Counted from the stretch's first letter, positions 349-25,035 are shown. The stretch is 27,749 nucleotides of DNA from Myxococcota bacterium (GCA_039208735.1 JBCCQY010000120.1:1-27749), one strand, 5' to 3'. Notes: a model not told the origin generated them from the sequence alone. A program made the numbers and translations.

Positions 349-1719
349 ATGGCCGAGCTGCCAAAGCCGCATGACGGGATGACGCCGGAGGAGAAGGGCG
401 AGCTGCTCAAACGGTACGTCGCGACTGGGGAAAGGTTTTTTTGGGGCCTCGACTTCAACTACGCGGACCTCACAGGGGCCCACCTCAGTAGGGCCGACCT
501 CAGTAGGGCCGACCTCAGGGGGGCCAACCTCATAGGGGCCGACCTCGGAGGGGCCAACCTCGTAGAAGCCAACCTCAAAGGGGCCGGCTTCTTCGGAGCG
601 AAACTGGCAGGAGCCATAGTTCGGGCCGTCGATCTCGGCACAACGAACCTCCTAAGCGGGGCAGACCTCAGTCGTTTGAACCTCGAAGGCATCACACTTG
701 CTGGAGTCGACCTCACCTCCACACAATTCCGAGGAACGAATCTAAGGAAGGCTGACCTCAGCAATTCAATACTCCGTGACACGAACATGGTAGGGGCTGA
801 CCTTCGTGGGACCAACCTGAGCCAAGCGAAGCTTGATCGTGCCAACTTCCGAACTGCTGACCTAAGAGGTGCCAACCTAAGATGGGCCTCCATAAGCGAC
901 GTTCGCTGGAATGGGGCGAGGATCGATAGCGCCACACAAGTGAGCAGCGGATGGACCCAAGAATTCATCACGGACTTGCACGATCAAGGCGTGCTTCTTG
1001 ACAGTCTTCTGCTTGCTCATGTCCTTAGACCAGGCCTCACTCTCTACTTCCGCACTCAGCTTGATGAGCTTGACGAGGCAGCCATTCTGGTCGTCCTGCG
1101 CGATTTCAAAGCCAAGTTCCCAGGCTCGGATGTCCGCAAAACTCTATTCGAGAACACAGGTGAACGGGCAAAACTCCGCATTGAATCCAGCAACGAGGAC
1201 CACCTTGCCATCCTCGCAGAGCTTTTGCAGAACCGAGCGTGGGAACAGTCTTCAGAACCAGCAGATTCTGCTGTGCCCCTTTCGCTGGAGGGACGTGCCT
1301 ACGCCTGGGCAGGCGACCAACTCTCCGTCATCATGGATCGAACAGGTCGGATGGAGATTTGGCGACAGCAAGACGACAAAGTGGTCCTGGTCCGCACCCT
1401 CGAACCCACCACCAGTCCTGCCCGCGAACATGCCAACTTCCTGATCGAGACCTTCGAGAAAGACGAACTCAAGCGCTTCGTGAAGTCCGTGAACGTCCAG
1501 CTCGCCGCCAAGGTCAACTGGGATTCGACGATGGAGTCCGTGGCACACGATGTCGTCGAGGCACTTCGACGGACCGGGCTCGACCAAAGGTCGTGGTTCC
1601 CGTCACTGCTGCGCGAGCGACCGTTGCTCACAGAGCGTGTTGGGGTTGTCGCCGCACATTACCAGCTGGGGGATGGTCGGTTGGTGTTGCCGGACCATGA
1701 TGACGACGAGCGCGAATGA
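349..1719 (+). CDS. Pentapeptide-repeat protein with C-terminal EAD-like (effector-associated, Death-like helical) domain
   Basis: Long A(D/N)Lxx repeat run (ADLTG AHLSR ADLSR ADLRG ANLIG...). The C-terminus FLIETFEKDELKRFV..VNW..VAHDVVEALRRTG..WFPSLLRERP matches the pattern of three other helical domains in the window. The start at ATG 349 is chosen because the paralog at 26308 begins at the same position (MAELPKPH); the track starts at 331. Confidence 0.9.
   Translation: MAELPKPHDGMTPEEKGELLKRYVATGERFFWGLDFNYADLTGAHLSRADLSRADLRGANLIGADLGGANLVEANLKGAGFFGAKLAGAIVRAVDLGTTNLLSGADLSRLNLEGITLAGVDLTSTQFRGTNLRKADLSNSILRDTNMVGADLRGTNLSQAKLDRANFRTADLRGANLRWASISDVRWNGARIDSATQVSSGWTQEFITDLHDQGVLLDSLLLAHVLRPGLTLYFRTQLDELDEAAILVVLRDFKAKFPGSDVRKTLFENTGERAKLRIESSNEDHLAILAELLQNRAWEQSSEPADSAVPLSLEGRAYAWAGDQLSVIMDRTGRMEIWRQQDDKVVLVRTLEPTTSPAREHANFLIETFEKDELKRFVKSVNVQLAAKVNWDSTMESVAHDVVEALRRTGLDQRSWFPSLLRERPLLTERVGVVAAHYQLGDGRLVLPDHDDDERE
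463..597 (+). repeat. 15-nt tandem repeat (GCC-NAC-CTC-NNN-NGG) encoding the first pentapeptide block
   Basis: Units at 463, 478, 493, 508, 523, 538, 553, 568 and 583, e.g. gcccacctcagtagg, gccgacctcagtagg, gccaacctcaaaggg. Confidence 0.9.
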
Positions 1720-1876
1720 ACGAACCGCGTTTACATCGGGCGGTGTGAACGGTGGTGTGCCACAATCAACAAGCAAACCTTCGCTCTCCGCCTAGATCTT
1801 ACTATCACGTGCTAGTCCTCGTTGTCTCGAAATGGCATGATCTAGCTCCCTTTAGCAACACCTCGGCTGGGCTTTC

Positions 1877-3343
1877 ATGAACGAGAAGGGCAAGCGCGCA
1901 CTCCAACACTTGGACGCAACACACGAGCTCGACCATCAGCGCCAAACGTTATCGGCGAAGCTGCTCTTGGTCCTCTTCCGGCCACGTGAACTCCTGCGGG
2001 TGGTGAAAGGGAACCTGTCAGAGATCGTGACGGAGCTTCCATCCGCAGAAGTCGGCATGCCAGATGCCGATTGGATGGATCGGACGGCCGAGATCGTGGT
2101 CAGGCATGGCTACTTCGAGGAGATGTGCGCGCTACTCCTGACAATTCGGCCGCGGCGCGAGCACGACATTCGTCAGGTCATCGATGCATGCGTTCCGGAG
2201 GATGTGCCCATCGAGCCAATGGAGGATGCGCTTGATGCGCTAGAAGTTACTTCGCGCGCGAAGTATGAACATATGCCACCGACAGCCACAGTTGCGGCAG
2301 AAGCACAACGATTGGCAGAGGACGCTGCAGTCCAGCTCATCCAATCGTCGAAGGGGTCCGTGGTTCTTGTCTTCGAAGGTCCACATCGTGCTGTGGAGCG
2401 GCTACGACTTGCACTTCTGCACCGCGGAGCCGTTGCTGGAATGCCAATTGAGAAGGTCGGCATACAGGCCATCGAAGCGAAGGGAATGCGAAACATCAAG
2501 GCTGCTGGGCTTCATGACCGACTTCACAAGGTTGAACGGGCACTGACCCATAGGCTGTCCGAATATCCGACGTTACGAGACGTACTGGCAAAGGAATTGG
2601 ATTCTCCAGACCTCGATGCGAGTGCCTTGGCCAAGCAGCTGCTGAAGGCGCATGCCCACGACCTGGTTCGAGCGCTCCGTCGCGCCCAGTCCTACCTCAG
2701 TGAAGAAGCTCGCAGCCCTCTCTACGGCTTACTGACCGAGTTGTTGCCCTATCTGGTGGACTGGCGGGAGGCGCAGCTACGGATGCGCGAGTATGCCGTT
2801 GACGAAAACCTGATCGAAACCGAGGCGCTCGAGTGGGAGCTTCCGCTTTGGAAGGAAGCATCCGTGGAGCTGCTGCTGGCCGGTGCAGATGAACGGCCCC
2901 CCACGTTCGAGATTGATGGTGGCGTTCGGGTTCGTGGCAAGGCCTGCCTGTTGTTGCCCACCCTCGACCACCTGGCCGACATCAGGAGGCTGTCTTCCGA
3001 AGAGATGATGCTCATGGTGGTGGACGCACTGCAGTTGGCCCACGACGAGTGGCGAATTGCCGAACACCCTCGAGAGGAGGACCGGATTGCCATTGCCCGA
3101 GATCTGCTTGACGACGCTCGACAAGGCCCACGCCAGGAATGGCCCTATCTGGTGATTGTCGACAGCCTCCTTGGCGCAATGGCGGAAGAGGTGTGGGGTT
3201 TGATCGGTAAAGGCCTCGATGATGCCGGGTTGCGAATGCGGCGGATGCGACTCACGGGGCGACCGGCGCGGTATGAGAGAAACCTTGAGATGCTCATCCG
3301 AGATCTGAAGCGCAGCCAGACAGGCGAATTAGGGGTTCGATAA
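1877..3343 (+). CDS. VMAP-like (vWA-MoxR-associated) protein, paralog 1: EAD-like N-terminus, SEA-like middle, C-terminal domain shared with 3805..5448
   Basis: 488-aa ORF. The C-terminal half aligns with the next gene (LLPYLVDWREAQLRMREY..EALEWELPLWKEASVELLLAGADER vs LLPYVVDWRAAQVRMREH..DALTWELPLIKEASAELLLAGVDER; MRRMRLTGRPARYER vs IRRMRLTGRPQPYER). The VMAP label is inferred from position next to MoxR/vWA. Confidence 0.75.
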   Translation: MNEKGKRALQHLDATHELDHQRQTLSAKLLLVLFRPRELLRVVKGNLSEIVTELPSAEVGMPDADWMDRTAEIVVRHGYFEEMCALLLTIRPRREHDIRQVIDACVPEDVPIEPMEDALDALEVTSRAKYEHMPPTATVAAEAQRLAEDAAVQLIQSSKGSVVLVFEGPHRAVERLRLALLHRGAVAGMPIEKVGIQAIEAKGMRNIKAAGLHDRLHKVERALTHRLSEYPTLRDVLAKELDSPDLDASALAKQLLKAHAHDLVRALRRAQSYLSEEARSPLYGLLTELLPYLVDWREAQLRMREYAVDENLIETEALEWELPLWKEASVELLLAGADERPPTFEIDGGVRVRGKACLLLPTLDHLADIRRLSSEEMMLMVVDALQLAHDEWRIAEHPREEDRIAIARDLLDDARQGPRQEWPYLVIVDSLLGAMAEEVWGLIGKGLDDAGLRMRRMRLTGRPARYERNLEMLIRDLKRSQTGELGVR

Positions 3344-3804: not shown

Positions 3805-5448
3805 ATGGCATCACGGGCGTTGGCGCTCTCTGAGCTACTCGGCAAACTCTTCGACGATTCCAAGAGTGCTGACTTGCTGCGGTGGACCACAATTCTCGAG
3901 GATCGGACTCAACCTGACCTCCGAGGCCTTGTCAAGGCTGTGCGGTGGTCGGCCCCGATGGCCCAGGTGACGTTTGAGCTAAGCCACAGGCTCGAAGAGC
4001 GAGGGACACTGGAACTCCCCCACATTGAAACGGTGCACAGGCTGCTCGTCGAAGCCTTCCCGCTGAGAAAGGACGAAATCGCAACCACTCTCGGTTTTCA
4101 TCCAGAGGCGTCATCGACGGGCGCTCGAGATGCGAACGCACCCGAGCCAAAGCGTCAGCAAACCGTGCCCTCGCCTCCCTCGGTCGCGGTTGGCGCCAGG
4201 AGCGAGCAGGGTGAGGTCATCGAGATCGGCGCTGCGACAGCCATCGCGAAGCACTGGTTGCTTACATGTCGACTTCCTCAAGATGCGAATGCCGTCGTCG
4301 TGCGCATCGAGGAAGAATGGTGGCCGATGGCCGAGAGGGTCGACCATCCCGACCCCACGTTCGATGTCGCCTTGTTGCGCTCGGAGTCGCCGCTACCGGG
4401 GCCCGTCGTCGACATGGCGGCGGTGGGCAAGTCGGTGTCGTTGTCGGTGCCCAAAGGAGCCAAGCCGGGCCAAGGCCTGTTTGCCGACGGTCGCCTGGTG
4501 GGCGTGTGCACGGGTGAGGACCCACCCGTGGCCCTCCCGCTCGCCCAGGTGGAAGCTTGGGTATTGCAGAAGGCCGCTGGGTTCTGTGACCGGTTGAAAG
4601 TGGTGCAGCGGACGCTGGAGCAGGCGCTCGGTGCGCATCCGGGTGTTCGGGAACGCTTAGCCAAATCCCTCGGCGTTCCTGCGGATGCTCCGAAACTGGC
4701 CGAACGACTGCCGCAGCATCATGCCGACGTATTGGCGGAAGCGCTGTTGCAGGAGGTCCTCCGCACCTCTGAGAGCGACGTACCGCTGCGAACGGCGCTG
4801 TGGACCGTGCTGCGTGCACTGTTGCCCTATGTGGTCGATTGGCGGGCGGCGCAGGTGCGAATGCGCGAGCACGAACTGGATGCTGAGGTCGTGGACGCCG
4901 ATGCGCTCACGTGGGAGCTTCCGCTCATCAAGGAGGCGTCGGCGGAGCTCCTTCTTGCGGGCGTCGACGAGCGCGATCCGCAGTTCGAGGTCGACCGAGG
5001 CCGGCCTCGAGGCGCGACGTCCTTGCCGCTTTCGACACTCGAGCACGTGAGTGGCATCGTCAACGTGGAGAACCAGGACCACATCACGGACATCGTGCTC
5101 GAGGACCTCGGCAATGCCATGGTCGAAGACCTCAACCTGACGATGGGCTTGAACCTCGACGACCTCTCTGACGTGAAAGACCAGCGCGAGGAAGCGGCAG
5201 GACTCCTTGCCGACATTCGGCGGTTCCGGCGGGACCGCCTGCCCTACATCGTGATGGTGGACCGGCACCTGCGAAGGGACGAAGAGCCTGACCAGCTGTG
5301 GGAGCTGTTGAACCAGGCCTTGGACCGAGCGAACCTCGGTATTCGGCGCATGCGGCTTACCGGCAGGCCGCAGCCCTACGAGCGGCGCTTCGAGCAAATG
5401 GTGTCCGAGTTGAAGCCCTGGGAAGACCCCGACGGAGGTGACGCATGA
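3805..5448 (+). CDS. VMAP-like protein, paralog 2: EAD-like N-terminus, degenerate trypsin-like domain, conserved C-terminal domain
   Basis: GGGAGG RBS at 3794-3799 precedes ATG 3805 (track starts at 3763). Trypsin-like traces: GAATAIAKHWLLTC, HPDPTFDVALLR, PGQGLFADGRLVGV. The stop overlaps the MoxR start (ATGA 5445-5448). Confidence 0.8.
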   Translation: MASRALALSELLGKLFDDSKSADLLRWTTILEDRTQPDLRGLVKAVRWSAPMAQVTFELSHRLEERGTLELPHIETVHRLLVEAFPLRKDEIATTLGFHPEASSTGARDANAPEPKRQQTVPSPPSVAVGARSEQGEVIEIGAATAIAKHWLLTCRLPQDANAVVVRIEEEWWPMAERVDHPDPTFDVALLRSESPLPGPVVDMAAVGKSVSLSVPKGAKPGQGLFADGRLVGVCTGEDPPVALPLAQVEAWVLQKAAGFCDRLKVVQRTLEQALGAHPGVRERLAKSLGVPADAPKLAERLPQHHADVLAEALLQEVLRTSESDVPLRTALWTVLRALLPYVVDWRAAQVRMREHELDAEVVDADALTWELPLIKEASAELLLAGVDERDPQFEVDRGRPRGATSLPLSTLEHVSGIVNVENQDHITDIVLEDLGNAMVEDLNLTMGLNLDDLSDVKDQREEAAGLLADIRRFRRDRLPYIVMVDRHLRRDEEPDQLWELLNQALDRANLGIRRMRLTGRPQPYERRFEQMVSELKPWEDPDGGDA

Positions 5449-6467
5449 CGGCAACCCAGACAACCGGCCTGCTCCAACGGGCGGCCGGTGACCGTGACGT
5501 GCTGTCGAGCGTTCGGGTGGTTCCGGGAGAGACCCCGACCCACATCTGGGAAGCGAACCACATCTTGGCGGTCGAGATGGGGCTGGCCACGGGCCGAGCC
5601 TTGTTGGTGAGAGGCGCGCCTGGGACCGGCAAGACGCAACTCGCCAAAGCGGCTGCGCACGCCTTGGGCGCTGCGTTGGTGCCGTATACGGTCGATGCCC
5701 ACACCGAGCCGCGCGACCTGAAATACCACGTGGACCACGTCGCCCGGTTGGCCCGGGCCCAGGCGATGGCGGCAATGGCGCCACAATCGGTATCGAGAGA
5801 AGGTGCGCCCGCAAGTTCGTCTGGTCGCGACCCGCTCGAGCCTTCGCAGTTTGTCCACCCAGGTCCATTGTGGTGGGGCTTCAACCCCGTCTCGGCTCGC
5901 GAGCAGGCCCAGAATACGGGCCTGGACCCCAAAGGATGCGCGGTGCCTCCAGGGGCCGAGGCCGGGGGGCGGGTGTTGCTCCTCGACGAAATCGACAAGG
6001 CCGACCCCACTGTCCCGAATAGTCTCCTCGATGCGCTTGGCTACGACGTGTTCGATGTGCCTATTCCTGGGTGTCCTCCGCGCGTCGAGCGAGCTGAGGG
6101 CCGACTGTTGGTGGTGATTACGACCAACGAGGAGCGCTCGCTGCCCGATGCGTTCCTCCGCCGTTGCCTGGTCCTCGAACTCGAACCTCCTTCGAGCGTC
6201 GACGAGCTGGTGGAACGTGGCGCCGCACATTTCGCCGCGTTGGCGCTGCCGATTCTCGAGGAAGCCGCCCATCAGCTGATGGCAGACCAGGCGGAGGCTC
6301 GCAGGCAGGGCAGCTACGTTCCCGGGCTTGCCGAATACCTGGACTTGTTGCGGGCCTTGGTCTCGATGTGTGGCGAGGACGACACCCGACAGCGAGCGCT
6401 GCTCGAGCAGGCCGCGCGTTTCGTGTTCCGCAAGGAGCGTCGAGGGGCTCGCGGAGCAACCCGATGA
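5445..6467 (+). CDS. MoxR-family AAA+ ATPase
   Basis: Walker A GAPGTGKT, Walker B VLLLDEIDKAD, and sensor/arginine-finger segment VVITTNEERSLPDAFLRRC. GGAGG RBS upstream. Confidence 0.95.
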   Translation: MTATQTTGLLQRAAGDRDVLSSVRVVPGETPTHIWEANHILAVEMGLATGRALLVRGAPGTGKTQLAKAAAHALGAALVPYTVDAHTEPRDLKYHVDHVARLARAQAMAAMAPQSVSREGAPASSSGRDPLEPSQFVHPGPLWWGFNPVSAREQAQNTGLDPKGCAVPPGAEAGGRVLLLDEIDKADPTVPNSLLDALGYDVFDVPIPGCPPRVERAEGRLLVVITTNEERSLPDAFLRRCLVLELEPPSSVDELVERGAAHFAALALPILEEAAHQLMADQAEARRQGSYVPGLAEYLDLLRALVSMCGEDDTRQRALLEQAARFVFRKERRGARGATR

Positions 6468-9400
6468 GGGGGCAGCGTGCCGATCTGCTTCGTTTGCTTG
6501 GGACCTGGAAAGACCGTCCCTGGTCGGACCGAGTCGGTGCGGCGACACGGCTTGGATTCGAAGCATCCGACGAAGGGGGGCTCGAGTCGGACGAGTCTCC
6601 ACCGGAGTCGCTCGCTGACGTCGGGCCGCCGGAGCCTTCGCCAGAACCCGAACCGGCCCTCGTCCCCCCGGAACTCGAACCCGTTCCGCTGTGGCGCATC
6701 GAGACGGCGGAGCCCATCGCCCCCGCTCCCACCCTTCCGCCTTGCGAGAGTGGACTTCGAGCTGAGGACCTCTCCCCAGGCCGCTCGCTGAGGGACCTTC
6801 CCGATACGCCCGAGGTCACTCCTTGGTCGCGGCTCGAACCTCGACTCGCAGCCATCGTTCGAAGCGATGCCCCATCGCATACGGTGGACCTGCGGAAGGT
6901 GGTGGCGCGGTTGGCAAAGGGTGAGGTGCTGGATCGACTTCCGCGGGCCACTCGGCACCGGTGGCCGCATCGGCTTCATGTCGTACTCGACCGCCGAAGC
7001 CCCTTTGTCACGCTGTATGCCGACCAAATTCGGGTCTTGCGGCAGCTGGCCAAGCGGTGCAGCCAGGTGACCGTGGGACGTGGCTTCCCTCCGCCGCTGC
7101 CACCCCACGCAACCTTGTTGGTCGTCGGTGATGCGAATGCGCTGCGGTCACGACCGTACTGGCGCCGACGTGCGGCCCAGCTTGGCCGCGTCGGGGTCCG
7201 CCTAGCCGCATTGGTGGCCGACGCTCGACCCCTGAGGGACACCTTTTGGCACGCGACGACTTGGGAGCGGCGTCCCGCGGTCACCGAGCCCGAGGTGCAG
7301 CGGTCTCGAGTCCGACGGTTACTGCGTCTTGGTTCGGTAACCCCCTTGCTGCAGCCGGGTCTGCTGCGCGCCCTTCGTCTGCTCCTGCCCGCCGACGAGG
7401 CCGACTTGCAAACTGAGCTGCAAGCTCTTGCCGACCCTACGCTGGTGCGTGAGGTCGACCACCAAGCGGTGGTCATCGAGCCCGCCCTGGTTGAGGAACT
7501 CCGAGAAGAGTTCGAGAAGCAAGTCCCTGCCGACCTCCAACATCGGGTTTGGCAGACCATTGCTGCGTGGCACGAGGCGCTCCCGGTCGAAGTCGGCGTG
7601 TTCGACCACCTTGTGCGCCGGGGACTTGAGGGGCCGACCGAGGGAGCGGCATCGGCGTCGGCACTGGACTTCGTGCGGCGGCTCCAGCGGACGATTGGCT
7701 CTGGGCAAGGGGGCGCAGGATGGCGGCGGGTGGCCCGAGGCTTCCTCCGACATCTGCCTGTTCCACCGAACCGCGTGGACCCGCAGCTCGAACAGGTGTT
7801 GGGGGGACTTTCCGATGTGCTCGGCGGTGAGGCGAATGCAACCCCAGTCGCGCACCCCGTCGTCCAGGTCGGTTCCGAACTGCGGGTGGGGCAGACTTCA
7901 GGCAGCATTGTGGGGACGTTGTACAGCGCATCAATGGTTGTCGTGGAACGCCCCGGGTCGAGGGCACGACAACGCGTGACACCCGGACTTCGCATTCCCT
8001 TGCCCTCAACTGTTGAGCAACGACCCGAATGGGCGGTTGCAAGCGGTCGAGATCGGTTCGGGCGCTGGGCTGAGGCTGAAGTCGAGGGCGTACGGTTCCG
8101 TATGCGGTGGGTCCCACCAGGCAGGTTCCTCATGGGCTCTCCGCCGTCTGAACCCGATCGGTTCAACGATGAGAGGCTACACGAGGTCGAAATCACGCGA
8201 GGCTATTGGCTGGCCGCAATGCCCGTGACGCAAGCTTTGTGGCGCGCCGTCATGCAGACGAACCCAAGCAAGTTCGAGGGCGACGAGCGGCCAGTCGAGC
8301 AAGTGTCTTGGCACGAAGCTCGGGAATTCTGCCAACGGTTGACAGCGAAGTTGCCGGGGCTGGGGTCCCGGTTGCCGACCGAAGCGGAGTGGGAAAAGGC
8401 GGCGCGGTCAGGTCGCACCGACCGGGGTTGGGCGACCGAAGAAGAACTGCGGGAGATTGCTTGGTTCGAAGACAACAGCGATATGCAGACGCATCCGGTA
8501 GCGCAGAAACAGCCGAATGCCGGTGGGTTCCACGACATGCTCGGCAATGTGTATGAGTGGTGCCTGGATGCCGTACACAGCTTTGCTGAGCCTTTGCCTG
8601 ACGCGTACGCATCCGATCCGCTTGGCACGAGCGGCTCGCGCCGAGTGTTTCGTGGCGGGTCGTGGAACGCCCGCGCGAGGCGCGTCCGCGCGGCCTACCG
8701 CTACGCGAACGAGCCTGGCAATCGCTACGCCTACCTTGGGTTTCGTGTGGCCGGAGGTCCTGCGCCAGGGGGCGGAGCCCCAGGACCGGGGCGGGACGCA
8801 CCGGGACCCGAGCGCGAGGGGACCGAGCCCAGTCCCGATGCTGACGTTGTTCCCGAGGTTGAGCGTCCCCAACCGCCAACGCGAACTCGCATCACCCTTC
8901 GGAGCCGATTCCAGCGACTCACGGTAGCTCCCTGGTTTCGTGAGCCTTGGGTGACCGCTGCAGGGCGCGATCGATTCGGCTTGTGGTCCGAAGTCGACGT
9001 ACAGGGCGTGCGGTTCCGAATGCGGTGGATTCCACCAGGTCGGTTCATGATGGGCTCGCCGCCGAGTGAAGCCGGCCGGTACGACGACGAGACCCTGCAC
9101 CCGGTCCACCTCACGCGCGGTTACTGGCTGGGCGAGACCCCGGTGACCCAGGACCTCTGGCAGGCCCTTATGGGAACCAACCCGAGCCGGTTTGTGAGCC
9201 CGGGTCGGCCCGTCGAACAAGTGAGCTGGGAAGAGGCGATGGCGTTCTGCAAGGCGCTGGGCGAAGCGGCTCCAGGCTTGTCACCACGGCTACCCACCGA
9301 AGCGGAATGGGAACATGCCTGTCGAGCAGGCACCGAGACGACGACGTGGGTAGGGGACCTCGAGTTGTTGGGCAGGCGGAACGCACCGTTGCTCGACGCC

Positions 9401-9886
9401 ATCGCTTGGTACAGCGGGAACAGCGGTGTGGAGTTCGACCTGGACGATGGGTACCACACTTCGATGTGGTTCGAAGCGCAGTACGACCACACGCGAGCAG
9501 GTACGCATCCGGTGCGTACACGCCAGGCGAATCCGTGGGGGCTATACGACATGTTGGGCAATGTGTACGAGTGGTGCTTGGACCAGGTCGAAAGCAGCAG
9601 AAGCCCACTTCCTGCAGAAACCCAAACAGACCCGTTGAGTCTAAGCGGCTCGAGCCGGGTGATTCGTGGCGGGTCGTGGCGCGCCCTCGCGAGGAGCGTA
9701 CGCGCTGCGGCACGCCGGGCGTACGCTCCTGGCGTTCGCTATGATCGCCTCGGGTTTCGTGTGGCCGGAGGTCCTGCGCCAAGTGGCGGAGCCCAAGTTG
9801 CGGGCCGGGACGGCGCAGTGCAGTTCCGAGCGGAGCGAGGTGGCCCGGAGGGCAGGCCGAAACCCAATTTCGAGGACCCCCAATGA
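6464..9886 (+). CDS. vWA-like domain protein fused to two FGE-sulfatase (SUMF1/CLec-fold) domains
   Basis: True start is probably ATG 6464 (ATGA overlap with MoxR, GGAG at 6453). vWA-like segment VDLRKVVARLAKG..LHVVLDRRSP..LLVVGD. Two copies of the FGE motif set (PPGRFxMGSP, PVEQVSW, RLPTEAEWE, DMLGNVYEWC, RGGSW..LGFRVA). Confidence 0.92.
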   Translation: MRGQRADLLRLLGTWKDRPWSDRVGAATRLGFEASDEGGLESDESPPESLADVGPPEPSPEPEPALVPPELEPVPLWRIETAEPIAPAPTLPPCESGLRAEDLSPGRSLRDLPDTPEVTPWSRLEPRLAAIVRSDAPSHTVDLRKVVARLAKGEVLDRLPRATRHRWPHRLHVVLDRRSPFVTLYADQIRVLRQLAKRCSQVTVGRGFPPPLPPHATLLVVGDANALRSRPYWRRRAAQLGRVGVRLAALVADARPLRDTFWHATTWERRPAVTEPEVQRSRVRRLLRLGSVTPLLQPGLLRALRLLLPADEADLQTELQALADPTLVREVDHQAVVIEPALVEELREEFEKQVPADLQHRVWQTIAAWHEALPVEVGVFDHLVRRGLEGPTEGAASASALDFVRRLQRTIGSGQGGAGWRRVARGFLRHLPVPPNRVDPQLEQVLGGLSDVLGGEANATPVAHPVVQVGSELRVGQTSGSIVGTLYSASMVVVERPGSRARQRVTPGLRIPLPSTVEQRPEWAVASGRDRFGRWAEAEVEGVRFRMRWVPPGRFLMGSPPSEPDRFNDERLHEVEITRGYWLAAMPVTQALWRAVMQTNPSKFEGDERPVEQVSWHEAREFCQRLTAKLPGLGSRLPTEAEWEKAARSGRTDRGWATEEELREIAWFEDNSDMQTHPVAQKQPNAGGFHDMLGNVYEWCLDAVHSFAEPLPDAYASDPLGTSGSRRVFRGGSWNARARRVRAAYRYANEPGNRYAYLGFRVAGGPAPGGGAPGPGRDAPGPEREGTEPSPDADVVPEVERPQPPTRTRITLRSRFQRLTVAPWFREPWVTAAGRDRFGLWSEVDVQGVRFRMRWIPPGRFMMGSPPSEAGRYDDETLHPVHLTRGYWLGETPVTQDLWQALMGTNPSRFVSPGRPVEQVSWEEAMAFCKALGEAAPGLSPRLPTEAEWEHACRAGTETTTWVGDLELLGRRNAPLLDAIAWYSGNSGVEFDLDDGYHTSMWFEAQYDHTRAGTHPVRTRQANPWGLYDMLGNVYEWCLDQVESSRSPLPAETQTDPLSLSGSSRVIRGGSWRALARSVRAAARRAYAPGVRYDRLGFRVAGGPAPSGGAQVAGRDGAVQFRAERGGPEGRPKPNFEDPQ
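8633..8780 (+). repeat. DGR variable-region-like repeat VR1 with conserved 3' (IMH-like) tail
   Basis: Aligns without gaps to 9647-9794 and 10767-10914. Differences concentrate in codon positions 1-2 of NNY codons. 8738-8767 is identical over 30 nt to 9752-9781. Confidence 0.75.
9647..9794 (+). repeat. DGR variable-region-like repeat VR2
   Basis: GSSRVIRGGSWRALARSVRAAARRAYAPGVRYDRLGFRVAGGPAP; same nucleotide scaffold as VR1 and VR3. Confidence 0.72.
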
Positions 9887-10035
9887 GGCTCCACTTCATT
9901 TGCGTCCCCGTATTTGACGATGGTAAGGCGCAGGCCGAACTCAACCGGTTCCTGGCAACCCATCGCGTCGTGGCGGTCGACCGCCAGCTCCTTGCGTTCC
10001 GGGCCGTTTGTGCGTCATACGCCGACCAGCCATGA
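9883..10035 (+). pseudogene. 50-aa ORF resembling the N-terminal part of DGR-associated HRDC accessory proteins; HRDC domain missing
   Basis: Not in the ORF track. Translates as MRLHFICVPVFDDGKAQAELNRFLATHRVVAVDRQLLAFRAVCASYADQP*. It has a GAGGA RBS at 9872-9876 and ATGA overlaps at both ends (9883-9886, 10032-10035). The family match is recalled from the F.IPv......ELNrFL..HRV..VDRq pattern, not searched. Confidence 0.7.
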
Positions 10036-10961
10036 CCCATCCGCTTGCGCGAGGTGCGCCACCGCTTTGGGCGTCCGAATGGGGAGAAGACGGCTTCGGA
10101 CCCTTTGTCGCCTTTGAGGTCGAAGGCGTGGTCCAGCGGATGCGGTGGATTCGCAAGGGCACGTTCTGGATGGGTTCCCCCGACGAGGAGAGCGGCCGTC
10201 GAGATGACGAAGCGCGTCATCTCGTCACCCTCCCTCGTGGATTCTGGCTCGCCGACACGCCAGTCACTCAGGCGCTTTGGGAGACGGTTATGGGCGATAA
10301 TCCGAGCCGGTTTCGCTTGCCATTGCGACCGGTAGAGCAGGTGAACTGTGAAGAGGCTCAAGCCTTTTGTAAGGCTCTGGATACCCGTGTTCCGGGACTG
10401 AACCCACGGCTGCCGACCGAGGCGGAATGGGAACGCGCGTGTCGAGCGGGCACTGAAACGGCGACGTGGATCGGAGACCTTGAGCTTCTCGGCGAGCGAA
10501 ACGCCCCTTTGCTCGATTCCATTGCTTGGTACGGCGGGAATAGTGGTGTGAACTTCGACCTCGAGGAGGGGCACGACAGTGCGAGGTGGGACGAAACGCA
10601 GTACGCGCACAAGAAAGCAGGCACGCGCAAGGTAGCCCTGAAGGACGCGAACCCGTGGGGGCTGTACGACATGCTTGGCAACGTCTACGAGTGGTGTGCG
10701 GACGTCTACGAACGACAACTACACACTGGACGTAGACGATTCTCCGTGTACACGGACAATATCGAAGGCTCGCTCCGAGTGATTCGTGGTGGGTCGTGGC
10801 TCAGCCTCGCGGGGAGCGTGCGTGCAGCGTACCGCGACGCGTTCGAGACTGGATTTCGACGCACTAACCTTGGATTTCGTGTTGCTGGAGGTCCTGCGCC
10901 AATTGGCGGAGCCCAGGAGGCGGAGCCGACGAAGAGGTCGGGGGACCCGACCAAGGGGTGA
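10032..10961 (+). CDS. Stand-alone FGE-sulfatase (CLec-fold) domain protein
   Basis: Start ATG 10032 (MTHPLARG) in an ATGA overlap. Motifs RLPTEAEWERAC, NPWGLYDMLGNVYEWC and RVIRGGSW..LGFRVA. Closest to the second FGE domain of the upstream gene (shared GDLELLGxRNAPLLDxIAWYxGNSGV insert). Confidence 0.92.
   Translation: MTHPLARGAPPLWASEWGEDGFGPFVAFEVEGVVQRMRWIRKGTFWMGSPDEESGRRDDEARHLVTLPRGFWLADTPVTQALWETVMGDNPSRFRLPLRPVEQVNCEEAQAFCKALDTRVPGLNPRLPTEAEWERACRAGTETATWIGDLELLGERNAPLLDSIAWYGGNSGVNFDLEEGHDSARWDETQYAHKKAGTRKVALKDANPWGLYDMLGNVYEWCADVYERQLHTGRRRFSVYTDNIEGSLRVIRGGSWLSLAGSVRAAYRDAFETGFRRTNLGFRVAGGPAPIGGAQEAEPTKRSGDPTKG
10767..10914 (+). repeat. DGR variable-region-like repeat VR3
   Basis: GSLRVIRGGSWLSLAGSVRAAYRDAFETGFRRTNLGFRVAGGPAP; same scaffold, with more synonymous drift than VR1. 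Confidence 0.68.
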
Positions 10962-14239: not shown

Positions 14240-14385
14240 GCTTGAAGCCCACCACTGCCGTTCCGGCAGATACAGAACCTGTGGTGTCTTGGAGGACGAT
14301 GCGTAGACCCGACCCTTACTCGGGGCCGTGGCTTCGCCAAACACACGTCCAGTCTTATCGTAAGACGATTGTTTCGGAGGTTTTC

Positions 14386-19221: not shown

Positions 19222-21626
19222 TGGGCTGGATGACGCAGGCCAAGAGCCATCCCGTCGCTCACATCGCCGCTGCCTTGAAGCTTCAGGTCACGCGCAACAC
19301 GATTGGGCCCTGCCCTTCGTGCGGAGCGTCCCACCGCGAGCACAGCGGGCGCCGGGGTCCCATCGGAACCACGACCGACGGCGCAGGTTGGCGGTGTCAC
19401 CGCTGCCAACGCACGGGCTCGACGGTGGACCTCGTCGGCCTGGCCCTCGGGGTCGAGCCCACGTCACCCGAAACCCGGGCGTGGTTCGCGGCGCGGGGCT
19501 GGTGTGATCCGTCCAAGGAGAGCCCACCACCACCGCATGTGAAGCCGCCACCCCTGCCCCCGCGAGAACCAGAGCGAGCACCACCCCCGCACTCGGACGT
19601 CGAGCGGCTGTGGGCCGACGCGCCACCCATCACGGACGACGAGTTGTCGATGACGTGGGTGTGGAGCCGAGGTCTGGACTCTGCGACACTCGCCGACCGG
19701 GACCTCGCACGCGTCATCCCGAACCAGGCCCCCAGCTGGGCTCGGCGATGGCGCAGCCACTACCGTGTCCTGCTGCCGCTGTACGACGCCACCGGGACGT
19801 TGCGGTCCGTCCGGGCTCGCAAGGTAGCCGACGTGCGCGGACAGAAGAGCCTGAATCCCAAGGGCTACACCGTGGGAGGCCTTGTGTTCGCGAACGCATC
19901 GGGCCAAACCCTGCTTCGGGACGGGGCACTCGGGGAAGGTGCCCGCGTCTACCTCACCGAAGGCGGCCCGGACTTCCTCACGGTGGCCGCGTGGTTGTCC
20001 GAGACCAGTCCCGATGTCGTGTTCGGGATCGGAGCCGGTCAATGGACGCCCGAACTCGCGGCGCGCATTCCGGACGGTACGCAGGTCTTCGTCTGCACCG
20101 ACCCGAACGCAACGGGACGGGCCTACGCGAAGGCAGTAGCCGAATCCCTCGAGGGACGGTGCCCGGTGTGGGTTCCGGACCCCGACGCGACGGACCCACG
20201 CGACCTCAACGACCGGTGGCGGGAGGGCCCCCAGGCCTTCGACCCGACCGCGGGGCTCGTCCGCTACGCAGTGGCGTCGGTGCCTCCGAACGGCGGAACG
20301 TGTTGCAGCGAAACACCGGATGGCAGGCCGTACCTGGCTGCGGCGAAGGGGGCACAAGGCTTCTATGTGGCCACCGCCACAGGCTACGTCTTCGTCGCCT
20401 CGAAGCTCGTGCGGGTCGAGCTTCAGCGGTTGTGGCCTCATCTGCAGACCCGCAACGAAGAGGGCGAGCCGCTCGGGGCGGCCACGCTCTACGAGCGGTT
20501 CGGACGTCGCGTCGACGACGTCATCTTCAGCTACACAAGCCGCACCCGCTTCGAGAAAGGCCCGAACCACGGCGGGAAGCTGTTCCTGCAGGTCTTGCAA
20601 GAACCCCCACCGCCTGCCGTCTTCCACGCCGACGTTGATGAGTGGCTAAGGCTCGCCTTCAACGAGCGGACCCTCGATTGGCTCGCCACCATGCCGGAAC
20701 TCGGTCAGCCCACGAGCGCGCTGTGGCTCTACGGTGCGAAGGGCATCGGCAAGTCGATGATTGCGGAAGCCTGCAGCGCCTACTTCGGCAGTGCGGTCAC
20801 CGACTACGACGACGTCTTCAAGGGCCGCCTCAACGATGCGTTGTTGCGGTGTCCCATCATGCACCTCGACGAACAGGCCGAGGTGAAGGCGAGCACCGGC
20901 GTCATGCGAAAGCGCATCGCCAACTCCCGGCACGCCATCGAGGCAAAGGGCGAACCGTCTGGCACGCTTCACGGCTGTCCTCGGCTCATCATCTGCTCGA
21001 ACAACCCCGACCCGATGGGGTGGGGTCGCGAAGCCCTGACGCGCATGGACAACGACGCGATTGGCGACCGCATGCTCATTGTCGACTGCAACCCGGCCGC
21101 CGAGCGGTGGCTCAAGGAGCGCGGAGGTCGGCAAGGGGTCACGTCGGACTGGCTCGAACGGTCCGATGGCTCACGCGGACGGTTGGTCGAGCACATCGCG
21201 TGGCTCGTGCAGAACCGTACCGTCGAGCGTGACCCTCGCTTCTTGGTGCCCGGAGACGCCGCCGAGTGGTCGGCTCGGGTGGGAACGCGTGAAGGCTTGC
21301 CACGAACCATCCTCGATGCGTTGGCCTGCTACCTCGAGATGAGCCCCGCCGAACGGAACTGGGTCGACGACAAATATCCGCCGTTCCTTTGGCACCCCAA
21401 CTACGCCGACACGGTTCTCATCAGCGTTCCGGGCCTCATCCGAAATTGGCGACCGCTCGTCGGAGCAGGTGAACCCGTGCCCTCACCCGTCAAGACGGGC
21501 AAGGCGCTCCAAATCCTCACCAACGCGGATGGCCCGACGCGGATTCGCTTGCGCGCAGGCGACGACAAACGCGTGCGCCTGTACCTGCTTCCCGAGAGCG
21601 TCGTCGCTCGTCACGTGGGGGCGTAG
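19221..21626 (+). CDS. Primase-helicase: Zn finger + Toprim + SF3 (DUF5906-like) NTPase
   Basis: GPCPSCG...WRCHRC Zn finger; VYLTEGGPDFL, VCTDPNATG and DLND Toprim motifs; Walker A LYGAKGIGKS, Walker B MHLDE, motif C LIICSN. Start at the TGATG overlap, 19221. Confidence 0.88.
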   Translation: MGWMTQAKSHPVAHIAAALKLQVTRNTIGPCPSCGASHREHSGRRGPIGTTTDGAGWRCHRCQRTGSTVDLVGLALGVEPTSPETRAWFAARGWCDPSKESPPPPHVKPPPLPPREPERAPPPHSDVERLWADAPPITDDELSMTWVWSRGLDSATLADRDLARVIPNQAPSWARRWRSHYRVLLPLYDATGTLRSVRARKVADVRGQKSLNPKGYTVGGLVFANASGQTLLRDGALGEGARVYLTEGGPDFLTVAAWLSETSPDVVFGIGAGQWTPELAARIPDGTQVFVCTDPNATGRAYAKAVAESLEGRCPVWVPDPDATDPRDLNDRWREGPQAFDPTAGLVRYAVASVPPNGGTCCSETPDGRPYLAAAKGAQGFYVATATGYVFVASKLVRVELQRLWPHLQTRNEEGEPLGAATLYERFGRRVDDVIFSYTSRTRFEKGPNHGGKLFLQVLQEPPPPAVFHADVDEWLRLAFNERTLDWLATMPELGQPTSALWLYGAKGIGKSMIAEACSAYFGSAVTDYDDVFKGRLNDALLRCPIMHLDEQAEVKASTGVMRKRIANSRHAIEAKGEPSGTLHGCPRLIICSNNPDPMGWGREALTRMDNDAIGDRMLIVDCNPAAERWLKERGGRQGVTSDWLERSDGSRGRLVEHIAWLVQNRTVERDPRFLVPGDAAEWSARVGTREGLPRTILDALACYLEMSPAERNWVDDKYPPFLWHPNYADTVLISVPGLIRNWRPLVGAGEPVPSPVKTGKALQILTNADGPTRIRLRAGDDKRVRLYLLPESVVARHVGA

Positions 21627-21651
21627 CCGATGGTGCCGTTCTCCTCGAACA

Positions 21652-21941
21652 GGTCCGGGGTCGCACCCTGCGCGATGCCGATAAACAGGGCATCGTCACT
21701 GACGGTCCGACATCGCAGACGCGCGGTCCGAACACTGGGCCGGGCAAGAACGCAGACGACACCACGCTGGTCCGGAGGGGCAGGGGTCTGCGTGCATTCC
21801 CGCGTACTTCCCGAACGGTGCGCCACCCTCTCTACACCCCAAGGAAGTGCCCAGCGATTCCAACCTCGGACCCTCCGGACCACACCGTTGTCATCGGTCT
21901 CCAACGTCGGACCGTACCCCGGACCCTGTCTGGACCGGACC
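21652..21941. repeat. Inverted array of GGTCCG/CGGACC hexamers, candidate replication-origin iterons
   Basis: GGTCCG at 21652, 21704, 21725, 21769; CGGACC at 21867, 21876, 21908, 21920, 21936 (plus TGGACC at 21931), immediately downstream of the primase. Confidence 0.65.
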
Positions 21942-22194
21942 AGGGTTGGAGGAGAGGAAGAGAAGAGGGAAGAAGAAGGGTGTTGCTTCAGAAGCCACGT
22001 TCTCCTTCCTCTTCCGCTGTTCTCACGCCCGTTGCACCCATCGATGAACGACGGACGAGACGTTCGAGCGCCTGACGGGCGCCTGTGGGCTCCGTCCTGC
22101 ATCCAGCCTGTGCTCCCTTCCCGCCGCACTCCCTTCCCCCTTCCCGCCGACGCTGAACCGCAGTGTTGGACCTGCCTGAGCTGTGGAGTCCCCC

Positions 22195-23052
22195 ATGCTT
22201 GAATTCACCTTCGAGTTCGAGGGCCAACCCCTCGAGGTCCTTCAAGTCGACAATGAACCCATGATCGACGCGAGCCACCTGTCTGACGTGCTCGGCTACA
22301 AGTCTCGCGGTGCCATCACTGATCAGATCCGCCGCGATTGGTCCAGCGAGTTTGAGGAGGGTCGAGACTACAGGATGGTCGCCGGTTCTTCTATTCCGGG
22401 TGTTTCCGGGAATAGAGGAAGCAACCGTCCGAAGCTGCTTCTCACCGAGTCGGGCTGGAACCTCGTGTTCATCAAGACCCGCAAGCCCATCGGCGTCGCC
22501 TTGCGCCGGTTCCTCGCCGATGAGGTCCTGCCCCAGTTGTCGCGAACCGGGCAGTACACGCTGGGCGGTCCCACCCACGATGACGCGTTGGCGGCCCGGG
22601 TCTCTCGGCTCGAGCAGGGCCAGGAGAAGCTGACGGAGGTGGTGACGGGGCTCACGCATGTGGTGTCGGGCCTCGCGAAGCAGATCGCCACGCTTCCGCA
22701 CACTCGCATGCCCGCTCTTGGTGACGGCGCTGCGCCAGCGAGGCAGCTCCTGGTCCACGGGGTGCCGGTTCCGCCGCTGAGCATCCCCGAGCGGTTTTCG
22801 ATCCGAAGCCTGGGCCAGCTGGCACGTCCCGAGGGCTGCAGCGCGCAGACGATGAAGAAGCGGCTGCAGAGCGTTGGGCTACTCGACGACGACGTGTGGA
22901 GCTGGGTTGGCGAAGAGACCGTGATGACGTCATCGGGATCGGAACGGCAGCAGACGGTCTATGCGTTCCGCAAGGGCATCATGGCCGAACTTCGTAGACG
23001 GGAAAGGCGGGGCTCGCAGGGGCCACTGTTCGTCTGGCAGGGGGAGGAGTGA
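22195..23052 (+). CDS. Bro-N domain protein (phage antirepressor-like)
   Basis: FEFEGQPLEVLQVDNEPMIDASHLSDVLGY...LLLTESGWNLVFIKTRKPIGVALRRFLADEVLPQLSRTGQY; GGAG RBS before ATG 22195. Confidence 0.88.
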   Translation: MLEFTFEFEGQPLEVLQVDNEPMIDASHLSDVLGYKSRGAITDQIRRDWSSEFEEGRDYRMVAGSSIPGVSGNRGSNRPKLLLTESGWNLVFIKTRKPIGVALRRFLADEVLPQLSRTGQYTLGGPTHDDALAARVSRLEQGQEKLTEVVTGLTHVVSGLAKQIATLPHTRMPALGDGAAPARQLLVHGVPVPPLSIPERFSIRSLGQLARPEGCSAQTMKKRLQSVGLLDDDVWSWVGEETVMTSSGSERQQTVYAFRKGIMAELRRRERRGSQGPLFVWQGEE

Positions 23053-23142
23053 TGGTGGATCAAGGTATACCGAGCAGTTGAGGCCTCGCCTATGGGTGTG
23101 AATTAAGACCACATCGATACCAAGGCCACGAAGTTCGGGCTC

Positions 23143-25035
23143 TCACTTATCGGTTCGGCAGAGTGACAACTTCAGGTATGCTCGATCATCGAACGAGCTG
23201 CCTTCAGCTACGGTTTGGCGCCCCTTCGTTCTTGGGTATTTGCCGACCATCTGTGGGTCTTTGTGGAGAATATTGAACAACTGTCTTTCAGAATCCTCCA
23301 AAGTTTCACAGAGAACTGGATACCCGTCAGTCGCTAGAATAACCGCGGTCGCGTCATCCCTTACGTCGACTCTCTCCCAGTTGTTGGGTTGGTGCACCCT
23401 GAATCCGTCTATAGCACCGAAGCAGAAGCGATTGCCTTCCTTGGCATTACGGAACCGGTGCTGTAGCTTCGAAATCTGTCTGATTCCCTCGTCCCAACGG
23501 CGTGCTCCCTTCTCCTCCGAGGATAGGAGTAGAATGGAACGAGCATCCGCATATACCCTGTCCAACTTCCGAATTCTACTACGCCACTCGGAAACACCTG
23601 CGGGGTACATGATGAGACATTGGCAGTTTCCCAACAGCCAGACCTGCCTCTTCTTCGGAGAGTACAGAGCGACGCCACAACTGGGCCGAGCAGATGCGTC
23701 TGTGCTCAATTGGGTATAGCGTCCTTTACGATTATACTCTTCCCTAAGTGCATCAGTAAGCCGTTCCAGTGCGTCTTCTTTTCCGACATCTGGCGGCAGC
23801 CCTCTTACGGCATTTGCAACCGTCTCCGCAGCGAATCGCCCGGCCGTCACTGACCCCCATTCTAATTCGCTTTCTAATGGAGTCATGCCTTCGATGACCC
23901 CTCCGATGCCGTCCTCACGCAGAGGTGGCACAACCAAGTCGTCGCCCTGGTTGTCGACCCCCTTGGCGGAACAGGCTTTCTCTTCGACGACCACCACCCG
24001 GCCGTTCAGCCTCTTGTGAAGTTTTGGCGTTATTGAGCCAATGTCGAAGGGCCCGGGCAAATCGGTATCTTTTGCAATATTCCAAGTTTTCTGGCCCTCA
24101 AGTACATCACACTTGAAGACGGCAGCAAAATATTGGGGTTGCTTTAGTGCCTGATCGACATACCATTTCGCCGCCGAATTTGTTGCAAACTCATGGCATC
24201 CACACAAAAGCACAATCGTAGTACTATTGGTTTGGTTGGACCAAGGATTCGGCATTCTCACTACGAGGCCATAGTCGCTAATGATCTCCGGAGACTTTTC
24301 GTCGGTTCGGTCTGGTTTTAGTTGTGTACCGTCGCCAGGCCCCACAATGATGGAGGACGTAAAACTGCCACCCCATGGATAAAGTTGGATATCCAGACGA
24401 GATAGTGAAGGGTCTGCTGGGTCGGCCATATCTAGGCCATGGTTCAAAGCATCGAGGGATTTCGCGGCGAGGATATTCGTCTTACGTCCACCGATAATGA
24501 TGAGATTCTTCTTCTGTAGATCGGTAGAAACGTCTTCTGCCAGCAGTACCTGCTCGGTATCGAACTTCGGGCCGTCTGGATACTGGAGCATTGACTTAAG
24601 ACACGTGGCAAGCGCCTTTACCTGGGCGGTCCCAGTTGCCTTTCTCGTGTACTTGTTCTGGATCGTCGTTCCCGAGGTGGCGAGACAAAACACTGGGGCC
24701 TCGTCAGTACCAAGATGGCGCCATGGGTTTGAGGTGGAGTCCAATGATGCATCCATCTTGTCTAGTAAACGGTTAACGTCGTCCTCGAAACGAGATTTCT
24801 CATCCTTCAGATTCTCAAGGAGGGTGCGGAAATCGCGATGGTCGTGGCTAGGGCTTCGGTCATTGAGCATCTGGACGAGGTTCGTGGCGTAGTTCCTCGG
24901 CGTGCGCGACTGCTCGAGCTCTGGGAGCAACTTCCGGAAGTGTTCGCTCACGAAGTGTTTCAGTTTCTCCATCTCTGGGAAGGCATCGCTCAGGAGCTTT
25001 GCGATTTCCTTGAGGGGTCGTTCTTTACTAGACAT
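23143..25035 (-). CDS. EAD-like N-terminal domain + uncharacterised middle domain + PP2C-like phosphatase-fold domain
   Basis: N-terminus IAKLLSDAFPEMEKLKHFVSEHF..YATNLVQML..FRTLLENL. Middle NLIIIGGRKTN..DYGLVVRMPNPW. C-terminus GDDLVV, GVIEGMT, LLGNCQ, ILATDGYP, DDRAYL in PP2C motif order. Confidence 0.75.
   Translation of the reverse strand: MSSKERPLKEIAKLLSDAFPEMEKLKHFVSEHFRKLLPELEQSRTPRNYATNLVQMLNDRSPSHDHRDFRTLLENLKDEKSRFEDDVNRLLDKMDASLDSTSNPWRHLGTDEAPVFCLATSGTTIQNKYTRKATGTAQVKALATCLKSMLQYPDGPKFDTEQVLLAEDVSTDLQKKNLIIIGGRKTNILAAKSLDALNHGLDMADPADPSLSRLDIQLYPWGGSFTSSIIVGPGDGTQLKPDRTDEKSPEIISDYGLVVRMPNPWSNQTNSTTIVLLCGCHEFATNSAAKWYVDQALKQPQYFAAVFKCDVLEGQKTWNIAKDTDLPGPFDIGSITPKLHKRLNGRVVVVEEKACSAKGVDNQGDDLVVPPLREDGIGGVIEGMTPLESELEWGSVTAGRFAAETVANAVRGLPPDVGKEDALERLTDALREEYNRKGRYTQLSTDASARPSCGVALYSPKKRQVWLLGNCQCLIMYPAGVSEWRSRIRKLDRVYADARSILLLSSEEKGARRWDEGIRQISKLQHRFRNAKEGNRFCFGAIDGFRVHQPNNWERVDVRDDATAVILATDGYPVLCETLEDSERQLFNILHKDPQMVGKYPRTKGRQTVAEGSSFDDRAYLKLSLCRTDK

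Follow-up and report, generated by a model that had tools for sequence, protein, structure and literature searches.

EAD-like adaptor domains at a MoxR ternary-type locus and in the adjacent prophage of a Myxococcota bacterium

Can a small helical domain that recurs in proteins encoded across some 25 kb tie those proteins into one signalling system? The question is raised by a contig of a Myxococcota bacterium (JBCCQY010000120.1, assembly GCA_039208735.1) that encodes a MoxR-type AAA+ ATPase and four proteins, here called P0001 to P0004, with a similar segment at one end. A first-pass annotation had likened this segment to the effector-associated domains (EADs) of bacterial conflict systems and had proposed that it recruits a pentapeptide-repeat protein (P0001) and a distant PP2C-like protein (P0004) to the MoxR system. 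The window that we analyzed is the entire contig of 27,749 bases (C120), which belongs to a 9.4-Mb genome in 288 contigs. The assembly is fragmented, its contamination is estimated at 6%, and C120 ends in repeats.

Our results indicate that the four segments are members of one EAD-like adaptor family of about 80 residues, with a predicted death-like helical fold. The shared domain and the tandem gene order (pentapeptide-EAD, EAD-third component, EAD-trypsin-like-third component, MoxR, and a large protein with FGE-sulfatase, or FGS, domains) are direct observations. We put at roughly 60% the probability that the three copies at the head of the operon couple P0001 and other EAD-tagged proteins to the third components (P0002 and P0003), and that the fourth copy, in P0004, is prophage cargo.

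One domain at the ends of four proteins

Domain A is the C-terminal part of P0001 and spans positions 1426..1662 on the plus strand. Segment A has six paralogues elsewhere in the genome, and alignment A1 consists of A and five paralogues; a truncated copy on contig C135 was left out. Genome-wide profile searches were run on 77,372 six-frame open reading frames (ORFs) of at least 70 aa. Among these, the ORFs that a first small profile ranked best outside the family were P0004 and P0002, matched at their N-termini with E values of 0.13 and 0.28. Against 1.84 billion representative proteins, the A1 profile gave 1315 matches at E≤1e-3 and 111 at E≤1e-10. The 150 listed matches, less the window's own protein, supplied 177 domains (in 149 proteins) for a family hidden Markov model (HMM); P0002, P0003 and P0004 were absent from the sequences used.

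The family HMM matches all four segments. It matches A (ORF residues 372-450) with an E value of 1.5e-17, domain B at the N-terminus of P0002 (1958..2179, plus strand) with 1.4e-8, domain C at the N-terminus of P0003 (3823..4086, plus strand), the weakest of the four, with 5.7e-3, and domain D at the N-terminus of P0004 (24772..25017, minus strand; match at 24820-25008) with 1.7e-3. In the whole genome it finds 13 ORFs at E≤0.03, of which all but one are at E<0.01, and the best E values in the controls are 0.082 for reversed and 0.5 for shuffled ORFs. Comparison of the family alignment with single segments by hhalign gave probabilities of 96.0% for B (P 4.8e-9), 90.5% for C (P 1.4e-6) and 89.4% for D (P 2e-6). 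In a MAFFT alignment of 36 sequences, A to D are in register with the family consensus L..LL...F...EL.RF......V.W......VA..VV..L.R.G..D..F..AL...RP.R...I. The common pattern that the first-pass annotation had seen in the four proteins is thus recovered by an independent HMM, in register and with coordinates that agree within a few codons.

Could this resemblance be a generic property of short amphipathic helical segments, with no common origin or function? Pairwise comparison is in favor of such a view. BLASTP of the four segments against each other is not significant (best E 0.33 for A-B, 1.0 for A-C, 2.7 for C-D and 5.6 for B-D); A and D do align with an E value of 0.001, but out of register, and a comparison of P0002 with P0003 by BLASTP gives no N-terminal B-C alignment. 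C and D are weak matches to the family HMM, and the fold match described below is of middling Z. The all-against-all alignment of the four segments fails with single sequences; with profiles, the HMM detects all four copies and hhalign B, C and D. The controls speak against a generic resemblance, as the best E values of reversed and shuffled ORFs are above those of all four copies. In addition, the first small profile had already placed P0004 and P0002 ahead of every other non-family ORF, the matches span the whole domain in register, and all four copies are terminal in their proteins, with three of them adjacent. A terminal position is also common in the family at large, with most of the 150 listed representatives carrying the domain within about 100 residues of an end, and 4 of the 13 domain ORFs of the 9.4-Mb genome lie on one 27.7-kb contig. 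We consider a purely generic resemblance very improbable.

Pfam comes close to recognizing the domain. Its EAD1 model gives D 23.5 bits (E 7.8e-5) when the segment is scanned alone and 21.4 bits within the whole protein, where the cut-off is 24.2, and gives A about 14 bits (14.1; E 0.06). A genome-wide search with EAD1 found D alone, at 22.8 bits, and in both P0061 and P0004 the EAD1 match and the family profile span the same residues. Two of the six A1 members match EAD1 and one matches EAD7, all weakly. Among 16 short representatives that consist mostly of this domain, none reaches a Pfam cut-off; EAD7 is matched by four of them, EAD8 by two and EAD1 by one, and eight lack any EAD match. Of the four segments of the window, D and A have weak EAD1 matches, all of them below the cut-off, and B and C have none. 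We regard the domain as an EAD1/7/8-like effector-associated domain that falls below every Pfam cut-off.

To what is the domain fused in other proteins? We surveyed 127 of the 150 listed matches, those of up to 600 aa, leaving out 22 longer ones and the window's own protein. The fused Pfam domains are TIR_2 (26), TIR (14), Trypsin_2 (6), CHAT (5), pentapeptide repeats, PNP_UDP_1 and SEFIR (2 each), and SIR2, SAVED, TRADD-like_N, Metallophos and FGE-sulfatase (1 each). Pfam EAD families were matched in some of the same representatives (EAD1 in 11, EAD5 in 6 and EAD7 in 5). EAD1, EAD7 and EAD8 (PF19955, PF19960 and PF19961), as treated in portions of PMC7159879, resemble the copies in the window in being small, all-helical, non-enzymatic and terminal. 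They are also alike in layout, with one copy on a MoxR third component and others on effector-type proteins that are adjacent or dispersed. The fusion repertoire (TIR, trypsin, CHAT, pentapeptide, PNP, SIR2 and TRADD-N) is the same in the new family, and the weak Pfam matches of its short members go to exactly these three EADs. Unlike the published cases, the window copies are below the cut-offs, and among them the adjacent copies are not the closest kin.

The fold is likely a six-helix bundle like that of death domains. A is the one domain of the four that was modelled with confidence: its AlphaFold2 model, made with 36 aligned sequences, has six helices, a pLDDT of 83.1 and a pTM of 0.71. 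Domain C also has six helices in the model of P0003, but with pLDDT below 50. In an exhaustive structural search (VIA) with the model of A, the top 50 of 48,161 chains are nearly all CARD, DED, death domain (DD) or PYD structures (Z 5.5-7.4, with 73-94 residues aligned at 4-19% sequence identity); among them, at Z 5.7, is 8ss1, a bacterial death-like domain of solved structure. A Foldseek search of the PDB with the same model gave nothing at E≤1e-3; its best E was 1.5, and the weak top rows include CARD and DED. The predicted domain is similar to CARD, DED, DD, PYD, viral FLIP and 8ss1 in its six-helix bundle and its size. It differs from them in the middling Z scores, the low identity and the lack of a Foldseek match at that threshold, and homotypic assembly is putative here. 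Taken together, the HMM, hhalign and the model of A bear out the first-pass placement of an EAD-like helical domain at the C-terminus of P0001 and at the N-termini of P0002, P0003 and P0004.

The MoxR core and its third components

The locus appears to be built like the MoxR-vWA "ternary" conflict systems that were described by Kaur et al. P0001 (349..1719, plus strand) is composed of pentapeptide repeats (Pfam E 1.3e-52), an unnamed middle domain and domain A. In P0002 (1877..3343, plus strand), domain B is followed by a linker and a third-component module, and in P0003 (3805..5448, plus strand), domain C is followed by a trypsin-like middle region, in which the catalytic His position is not conserved, and by a second such module. 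The database versions of P0001 (456 aa) and P0003 (547 aa) place their starts at 349 and 3805. The MoxR-type ATPase gene is next (5445..6467, plus strand; Pfam AAA_5 E 1.1e-12, and bpMoxR E 1.9e-5, below the cut-off of that model), and after it comes a large protein in the position of the vWA component (6464..9886, plus strand), with an N-terminal region of about 510 aa and two FGS domains (~8080-8755 and ~9020-9766, plus strand; FGE-sulfatase E 5e-86 in two stretches). A stand-alone FGS protein (10008..10961, plus strand; Pfam E 3.7e-42) completes the set. Two ATGA overlaps, read directly in the sequence, join the stop of P0003 to the start of MoxR (5445-5448) and the stop of MoxR to the start of the large FGS protein. 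In its position, its ATGA coupling and its C-terminal FGS domains, the large protein is as expected of the vWA slot after MoxR. A promoter and terminator scan of 1-6600 was uninformative.

What are the third components? The C-terminal parts of P0002 and P0003, about 290 aa each, are paralogous (43% identity, BLASTP E 6e-53). The module of P0003 (4570..5445, plus strand; 2498-3340 in P0002) has a helical part followed by an alpha/beta part. P0002 and P0003 match no Pfam family at E≤1, and the shared module matches neither Pfam nor NCBIfam. At E≤0.01, a homologue of the module is present in 12 of the 401 genomes searched in the phylum, its own among them. A scan of genome contigs with the module alignment found one locus, in a relative of the same genus, and a metagenome scan found none; word-index homologue searches with this region of P0003, with the C-terminus of P0001 and with P0004 returned the query alone. 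Five of the six best distant homologues have an N-terminal DUF4062, PNP_UDP_1, TIR_2, CHAT or Trypsin_2 domain, and the sixth has no recognized domain.

The first-pass annotation had taken the core third component to be a VMAP protein, an identification that we do not retain. VMAP-C is a family present in Pfam, and VMAP-M0 was seen among the models of the library that we used. P0002 and P0003 have no match to any Pfam family at the threshold given above, and the Pfam matches of the six homologues (E≤0.1) are N-terminal enzyme domains or nothing, with no VMAP among them. The AlphaFold2 model of P0003 has a mean pLDDT of 56.9, with 83-92 in the helical part (residues 261-350) and moderate values in the alpha/beta part. 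The nearest structure in the Atlas belongs to an AAA_22/AAA_16 cluster (TM 0.42), and VIA rows to ORC/Cdc6, BrxC, TnsC and RFC are weak (Z 3.6-4.0). A GK[ST] P-loop is not visible in the alignment of third components, a PDB sequence search with their profile gave nothing significant, and an Atlas feature search gave no usable match for P0003 or P0004. The third components are not Pfam VMAPs, and by their architecture they look TERNS3- or iSTAND2-like.

The middle of P0003 is likely an inactive trypsin-like domain. This beta-rich region (4156..4539, plus strand) aligns by BLASTP, with an E value of 0.004, to the Trypsin_2 region of the homologue in genome G171, and the alignment puts "LLTCRL" of P0003 opposite "ILTARHV" of the homologue, with Leu at the His position. 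It has no Pfam match. Structural rows to the trypsin fold are weak (Foldseek E≥0.06; VIA Z 3.7-4.2), and Foldseek of the P0003 model against the PDB gave nothing at E≤1e-3.

The order third component, MoxR, FGS protein is conserved in other Myxococcota. Of the 12 loci searched, 7 have a MoxR homologue as the gene directly downstream of the third component; the five loci without one are those with the five weakest third-component matches (E 0.003-0.009), judged in short loci. In all three loci that were extended, the gene after MoxR is homologous to the large protein of the window, over its N-terminal 400 residues and its FGS domains. A stand-alone FGS gene and a reverse transcriptase (RVT_1) follow in two of these three (G135 and G171), in an arrangement like that of diversity-generating retroelements (DGRs). 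No reverse transcriptase was matched among the main ORFs of the window scanned against Pfam. We also considered a DGR in the window itself and rejected it: the three FGS ends are ordinary paralogues, 72-80% identical, with no evident template/variable-repeat pair in a comparison that included no base-by-base adenine count. In the third components of relatives, the position of the adaptor is taken by TIR, CHAT, trypsin, PNP or DUF4062.

Several published architectures are close to this one. The parts of PMC8195603 that concern MoxR operons list myxobacterial "TIR+TERNS3-N+TERNS3 -> MoxR" operons, a Sorangium "trypsin+TERNS3-N+TERNS3" protein of 503 aa and "EAD1+Trypsin -> EAD1+iSTAND2 -> MoxR" operons, and they name FGS among the effector domains of MoxR-vWA ternary systems. 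As in these TERNS3 and iSTAND2 systems, the third component here is the 5' gene directly before MoxR and has an N-terminal EAD or trypsin-like domain, with TIR in relatives. The likeness to TERNS3 is one of architecture, including the succession of a helical and an alpha/beta part in the P0003 model, and of host group. The locus differs in having two paralogous third components in tandem, and one large gene after MoxR in place of separate vWA and vWA-L genes. It is also similar to the VMAP systems with FGS effectors and diversity-generating retroelements that are described in portions of PMC7159879, in that MoxR is followed by a large protein ending in FGS domains, and it differs from them in the absence of a Pfam VMAP match and of a reverse transcriptase match among the main ORFs scanned.

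Proposed docking through the adaptors

How might the adaptors work in this setting? The sections of PMC7159879 on EADs set out an "EAD principle", in which one copy of the domain is on the core third component and another is on an adjacent effector-type protein, and they allow for partners encoded elsewhere in the genome. By analogy, the lectin-like FGS protein and the third component would sense an invader, MoxR would then remodel the complex, and the output would follow. Homotypic contacts of A, B and C would dock P0001 onto the two third-component proteins. Both third components carry an adaptor and neither has a recognizably active signalling enzyme, so that the output would come from adaptor-docked proteins. 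The first candidate would be the adjacent pentapeptide-EAD protein P0001, and the next would be dispersed ones such as the TIR-EAD protein on contig C47. The proposal that the pentapeptide protein is recruited to the MoxR system stands insofar as the layout fits the "EAD principle", with adjacent copies on P0001, P0002 and P0003; the interaction is putative. Complex prediction of B and C with A returned "no answer", with a score of 0.00 in both runs, and speaks neither for nor against binding.

Apart from the four proteins of the window, the 13 domain ORFs encode, among others, a protein with TIR, another pentapeptide protein, a membrane protein and, on C57, a STAND NTPase. The dispersed candidates for the output include a TIR-EAD protein (C47), a pentapeptide-EAD protein (C20), a membrane protein (C18) and small EAD-only or unknown proteins (C71, C1 and C19). 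On C71, a protein with Metallophos and nSTAND_NTPase4 domains (L004:12200-15346, minus strand) is encoded about 2 kb from the small EAD-only gene, beside a Tn3 transposase fragment, and it may be another EAD-coupled core. An unnamed domain of about 150 residues (GLTLYFR...LD.AA...FENTG...) precedes the adaptor in P0001 (window 931-1395, residues ~200-355) and also in two paralogues on C1 and C20 (L005:9045-10268, minus strand, and L006:8993-10915, plus strand); it has no Pfam match. The truncated copy on C135 (4374-4533), which lies among metabolic genes, corresponds to the first two-thirds of domain A with 92% DNA identity over 160 bases, and is likely a pseudogene fragment or an assembly variant.

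The pentapeptide half of P0001 is 48% identical (E 2e-33) to the N-terminal half of a pentapeptide-TIR protein at the other end of the contig (26110..27423, plus strand; Pfam Pentapeptide and TIR_2). Because of this paralogy, we view the pentapeptide module as one that is fused either to TIR or to the adaptor. The pairing of pentapeptide-TIR and pentapeptide-EAD proteins fits the "EAD principle" at the level of domains only. A "Rosetta-stone" version of this idea, with the pentapeptide-TIR protein as the sum of a pentapeptide-EAD protein and the TIR-EAD protein on C47, was dropped at any finer level than domain families: the two TIR domains are not close by BLASTP. The first 70-89 bases of P0001 have 85-92% DNA identity to prophage pentapeptide-TIR genes, and 335-423 is repeated at 26294-26382 (85% identity). 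The stretch just after the stop codon of P0001, 1733-1757, is found again at 26251-26275, upstream of the pentapeptide-TIR gene (84-92% for the repeats overall). These terminal repeats suggest that the two ends of the contig have recently recombined.

Several points weigh against coupling through these adaptors. All four copies stay under the Pfam EAD cut-offs, B and C lack a Pfam match even at E≤10, and C and D are detected only at E values of about 1e-3 to 6e-3. The match to death-like folds is at a middling Z (<8) and possibly reflects a mere common helical arrangement. A vWA domain was not detected in the large FGS protein, either with Pfam or in a PDB sequence search with its N-terminal profile, which gave nothing significant, or with Pfam in three homologues. 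The gaps of 157 nt between P0001 and P0002 and of 461 nt between P0002 and P0003 leave co-transcription of P0001 and P0002 with the core as putative. Adjacent EADs tend to be closest relatives, according to the relevant portion of PMC7159879, and A, B and C do not appear to follow this tendency. On profile columns, a rough measure for such short and divergent domains, A is 21% identical to B and 19% to C (B-C 24%), and is nearer to the dispersed paralogues on C71 (37%), C1 (33%) and C20 (33%). A simple picture of cognate pairs is disfavored by these values. Finally, the portions of PMC7159879 and PMC8195603 considered here contain no experimental test of MoxR ternary systems or of the "EAD principle".

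The design itself has already been described by computation, and this locus is a further example of it. What is particular to the locus is a subfamily of EAD1/7/8-like domains that Pfam misses, the presence of two third components in tandem, a trypsin domain that is likely dead and, among prophage cargo, a PP2C-like protein with an adaptor.

A fourth copy in prophage cargo

P0004 (23143..25035, minus strand) has an EAD1-like N-terminus, an unnamed middle and a C-terminal region of PP2C-like predicted fold. Where the first-pass annotation had put this protein on the far side of a mobile-element core, we find it inside the element. A prophage replication/Bro-N module at 19224..23060 (plus strand) has a second copy on contig C104 (~90-91% DNA identity by blastn; primase 93% and Bro-N 83% identical as proteins), and 27343-27747 is also 88% identical to C104 by blastn. 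C104 carries portal and Mu-F head genes. The two shared segments flank a stretch that is not common to C104, and P0004, a dehydrogenase-like gene and the pentapeptide-TIR gene are therefore placed in a variable cargo slot of the prophage. On C104, the space between Bro-N and the shared end ORF holds Schlafen AlbA_2, TIR+pentapeptide and pentapeptide genes. A third related prophage, on C111, has IrrE/HTH genes and ends in a pentapeptide-TIR gene 65% identical to that of the window. A search with the body of P0004 found nothing homologous in 400 further genomes of the phylum or, by word-index search, in an index of 5.8 billion proteins, and its gene has the lowest G+C content of the window (0.51-0.55, compared with 0.65 for the core).

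The PP2C/PPM-like region (residues 345-630; 23146..24003, minus strand) is a lead from predicted structures. In the Atlas's own model, its neighbors are PP2C_2/PPM clusters, with a TM score of 0.78-0.91 by target. The region has no Pfam match and no match in a PDB sequence search. It contains NQGDD, DGIGG, TDGY and DDRA, which we take to be PP2C/PPM motifs.

Does P0004 serve the MoxR system beside it? The network first proposed would make it a dedicated effector or regulator that is recruited, like P0001, through the adaptor. P0004 does have a domain of the same superfamily, and it lies within 25 kb of the core, where the chance that any of the 10 other domain genes would fall on the rest of the contig is ~0.02-0.05; an excerpt of the published model (PMC7159879) also allows EAD partners to have their genes at other places in the genome. 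Set against this are the variable slot, filled on C104 with the genes named above, the lack of homologues of the P0004 body, the low G+C content of the gene, and the divergence of D, which is alone in being near EAD1 proper and is 19-27% identical to A, B and C. We found no specific link to this MoxR system, and we think that a dedicated role is unlikely.

A different role, which we regard as more doubtful still, would be that of a phage tool. Viral proteins that consist of a DED or CARD alone damp or redirect host machinery in animals. In the same way, the prophage would have taken up a death-like docking domain of the host and fused it to a PP2C-like phosphatase. P0004 would then dock on EAD-coupled machines of the host, this MoxR system or an EAD-STAND protein, and switch off or retarget their suicide or immunity functions. 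If true, P0004 would correspond in bacteria to viral FLIP and CARD-only proteins. The position of P0004 amid prophage cargo, with an EAD1-like N-terminus, agrees with such a role, as does a predicted fold like that of PP2C, a typical reversing enzyme. However, the same slot in the sister prophages holds TIR/pentapeptide and Schlafen-type genes, which look more like defence cargo than like counter-defence, and both binding and phosphatase activity are putative, with no PP2C match at the level of sequence. Most likely, P0004 was acquired horizontally and belongs to the genome-wide adaptor network as an independent member; it would not be a dedicated part of the operon.

To the right of the FGS genes, the window encodes a LysM protein, the pair TcmP/DUF5131 and an HTH protein, and then come the primase/DUF5906 and Bro-N genes. 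The gene for TcmP (three-Cys-motif partner) and the convergent DUF5131 gene (14236-16594) are a known pair, and they stand beside the HTH repressor-like gene; this region could be the left part of the prophage. The UDP-glucose/GDP-mannose dehydrogenase-like gene (25064-26047) and P0004 start back to back. The alignment of the dehydrogenase-like protein to the NAD-binding-domain profile leaves out its first ~70 residues, a match to the C-terminal domain was not found, and the gene is possibly truncated. The three related prophages of this genome (in the window, on C104 and on C111) each have a cargo slot with pentapeptide and/or TIR genes, and the slot looks like a hotspot for prophage defence cargo. 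The ends of the contig are repeats common to C104, C111, C223 and C140. Bases 1-128 recur with 100% identity at the ends of C223 and C140, an assembly-graph repeat, and the gene that runs off the left end (1-312) cannot be placed because of it. No tRNA was found in the window.

The locus is a compact test case for docking by EADs, with three adaptor-tagged genes before a translationally coupled core of third component, MoxR and FGS protein. The core seemingly has no active signalling enzyme, and if the published model holds, docking would be essential to it. More than 1300 representative proteins, most of which are missed by the Pfam EAD models, are recovered with the family profile, which would improve the annotation of such networks. 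With adaptor-tagged cargo in the prophage beside the system, one may ask whether EAD networks are tapped by mobile elements.

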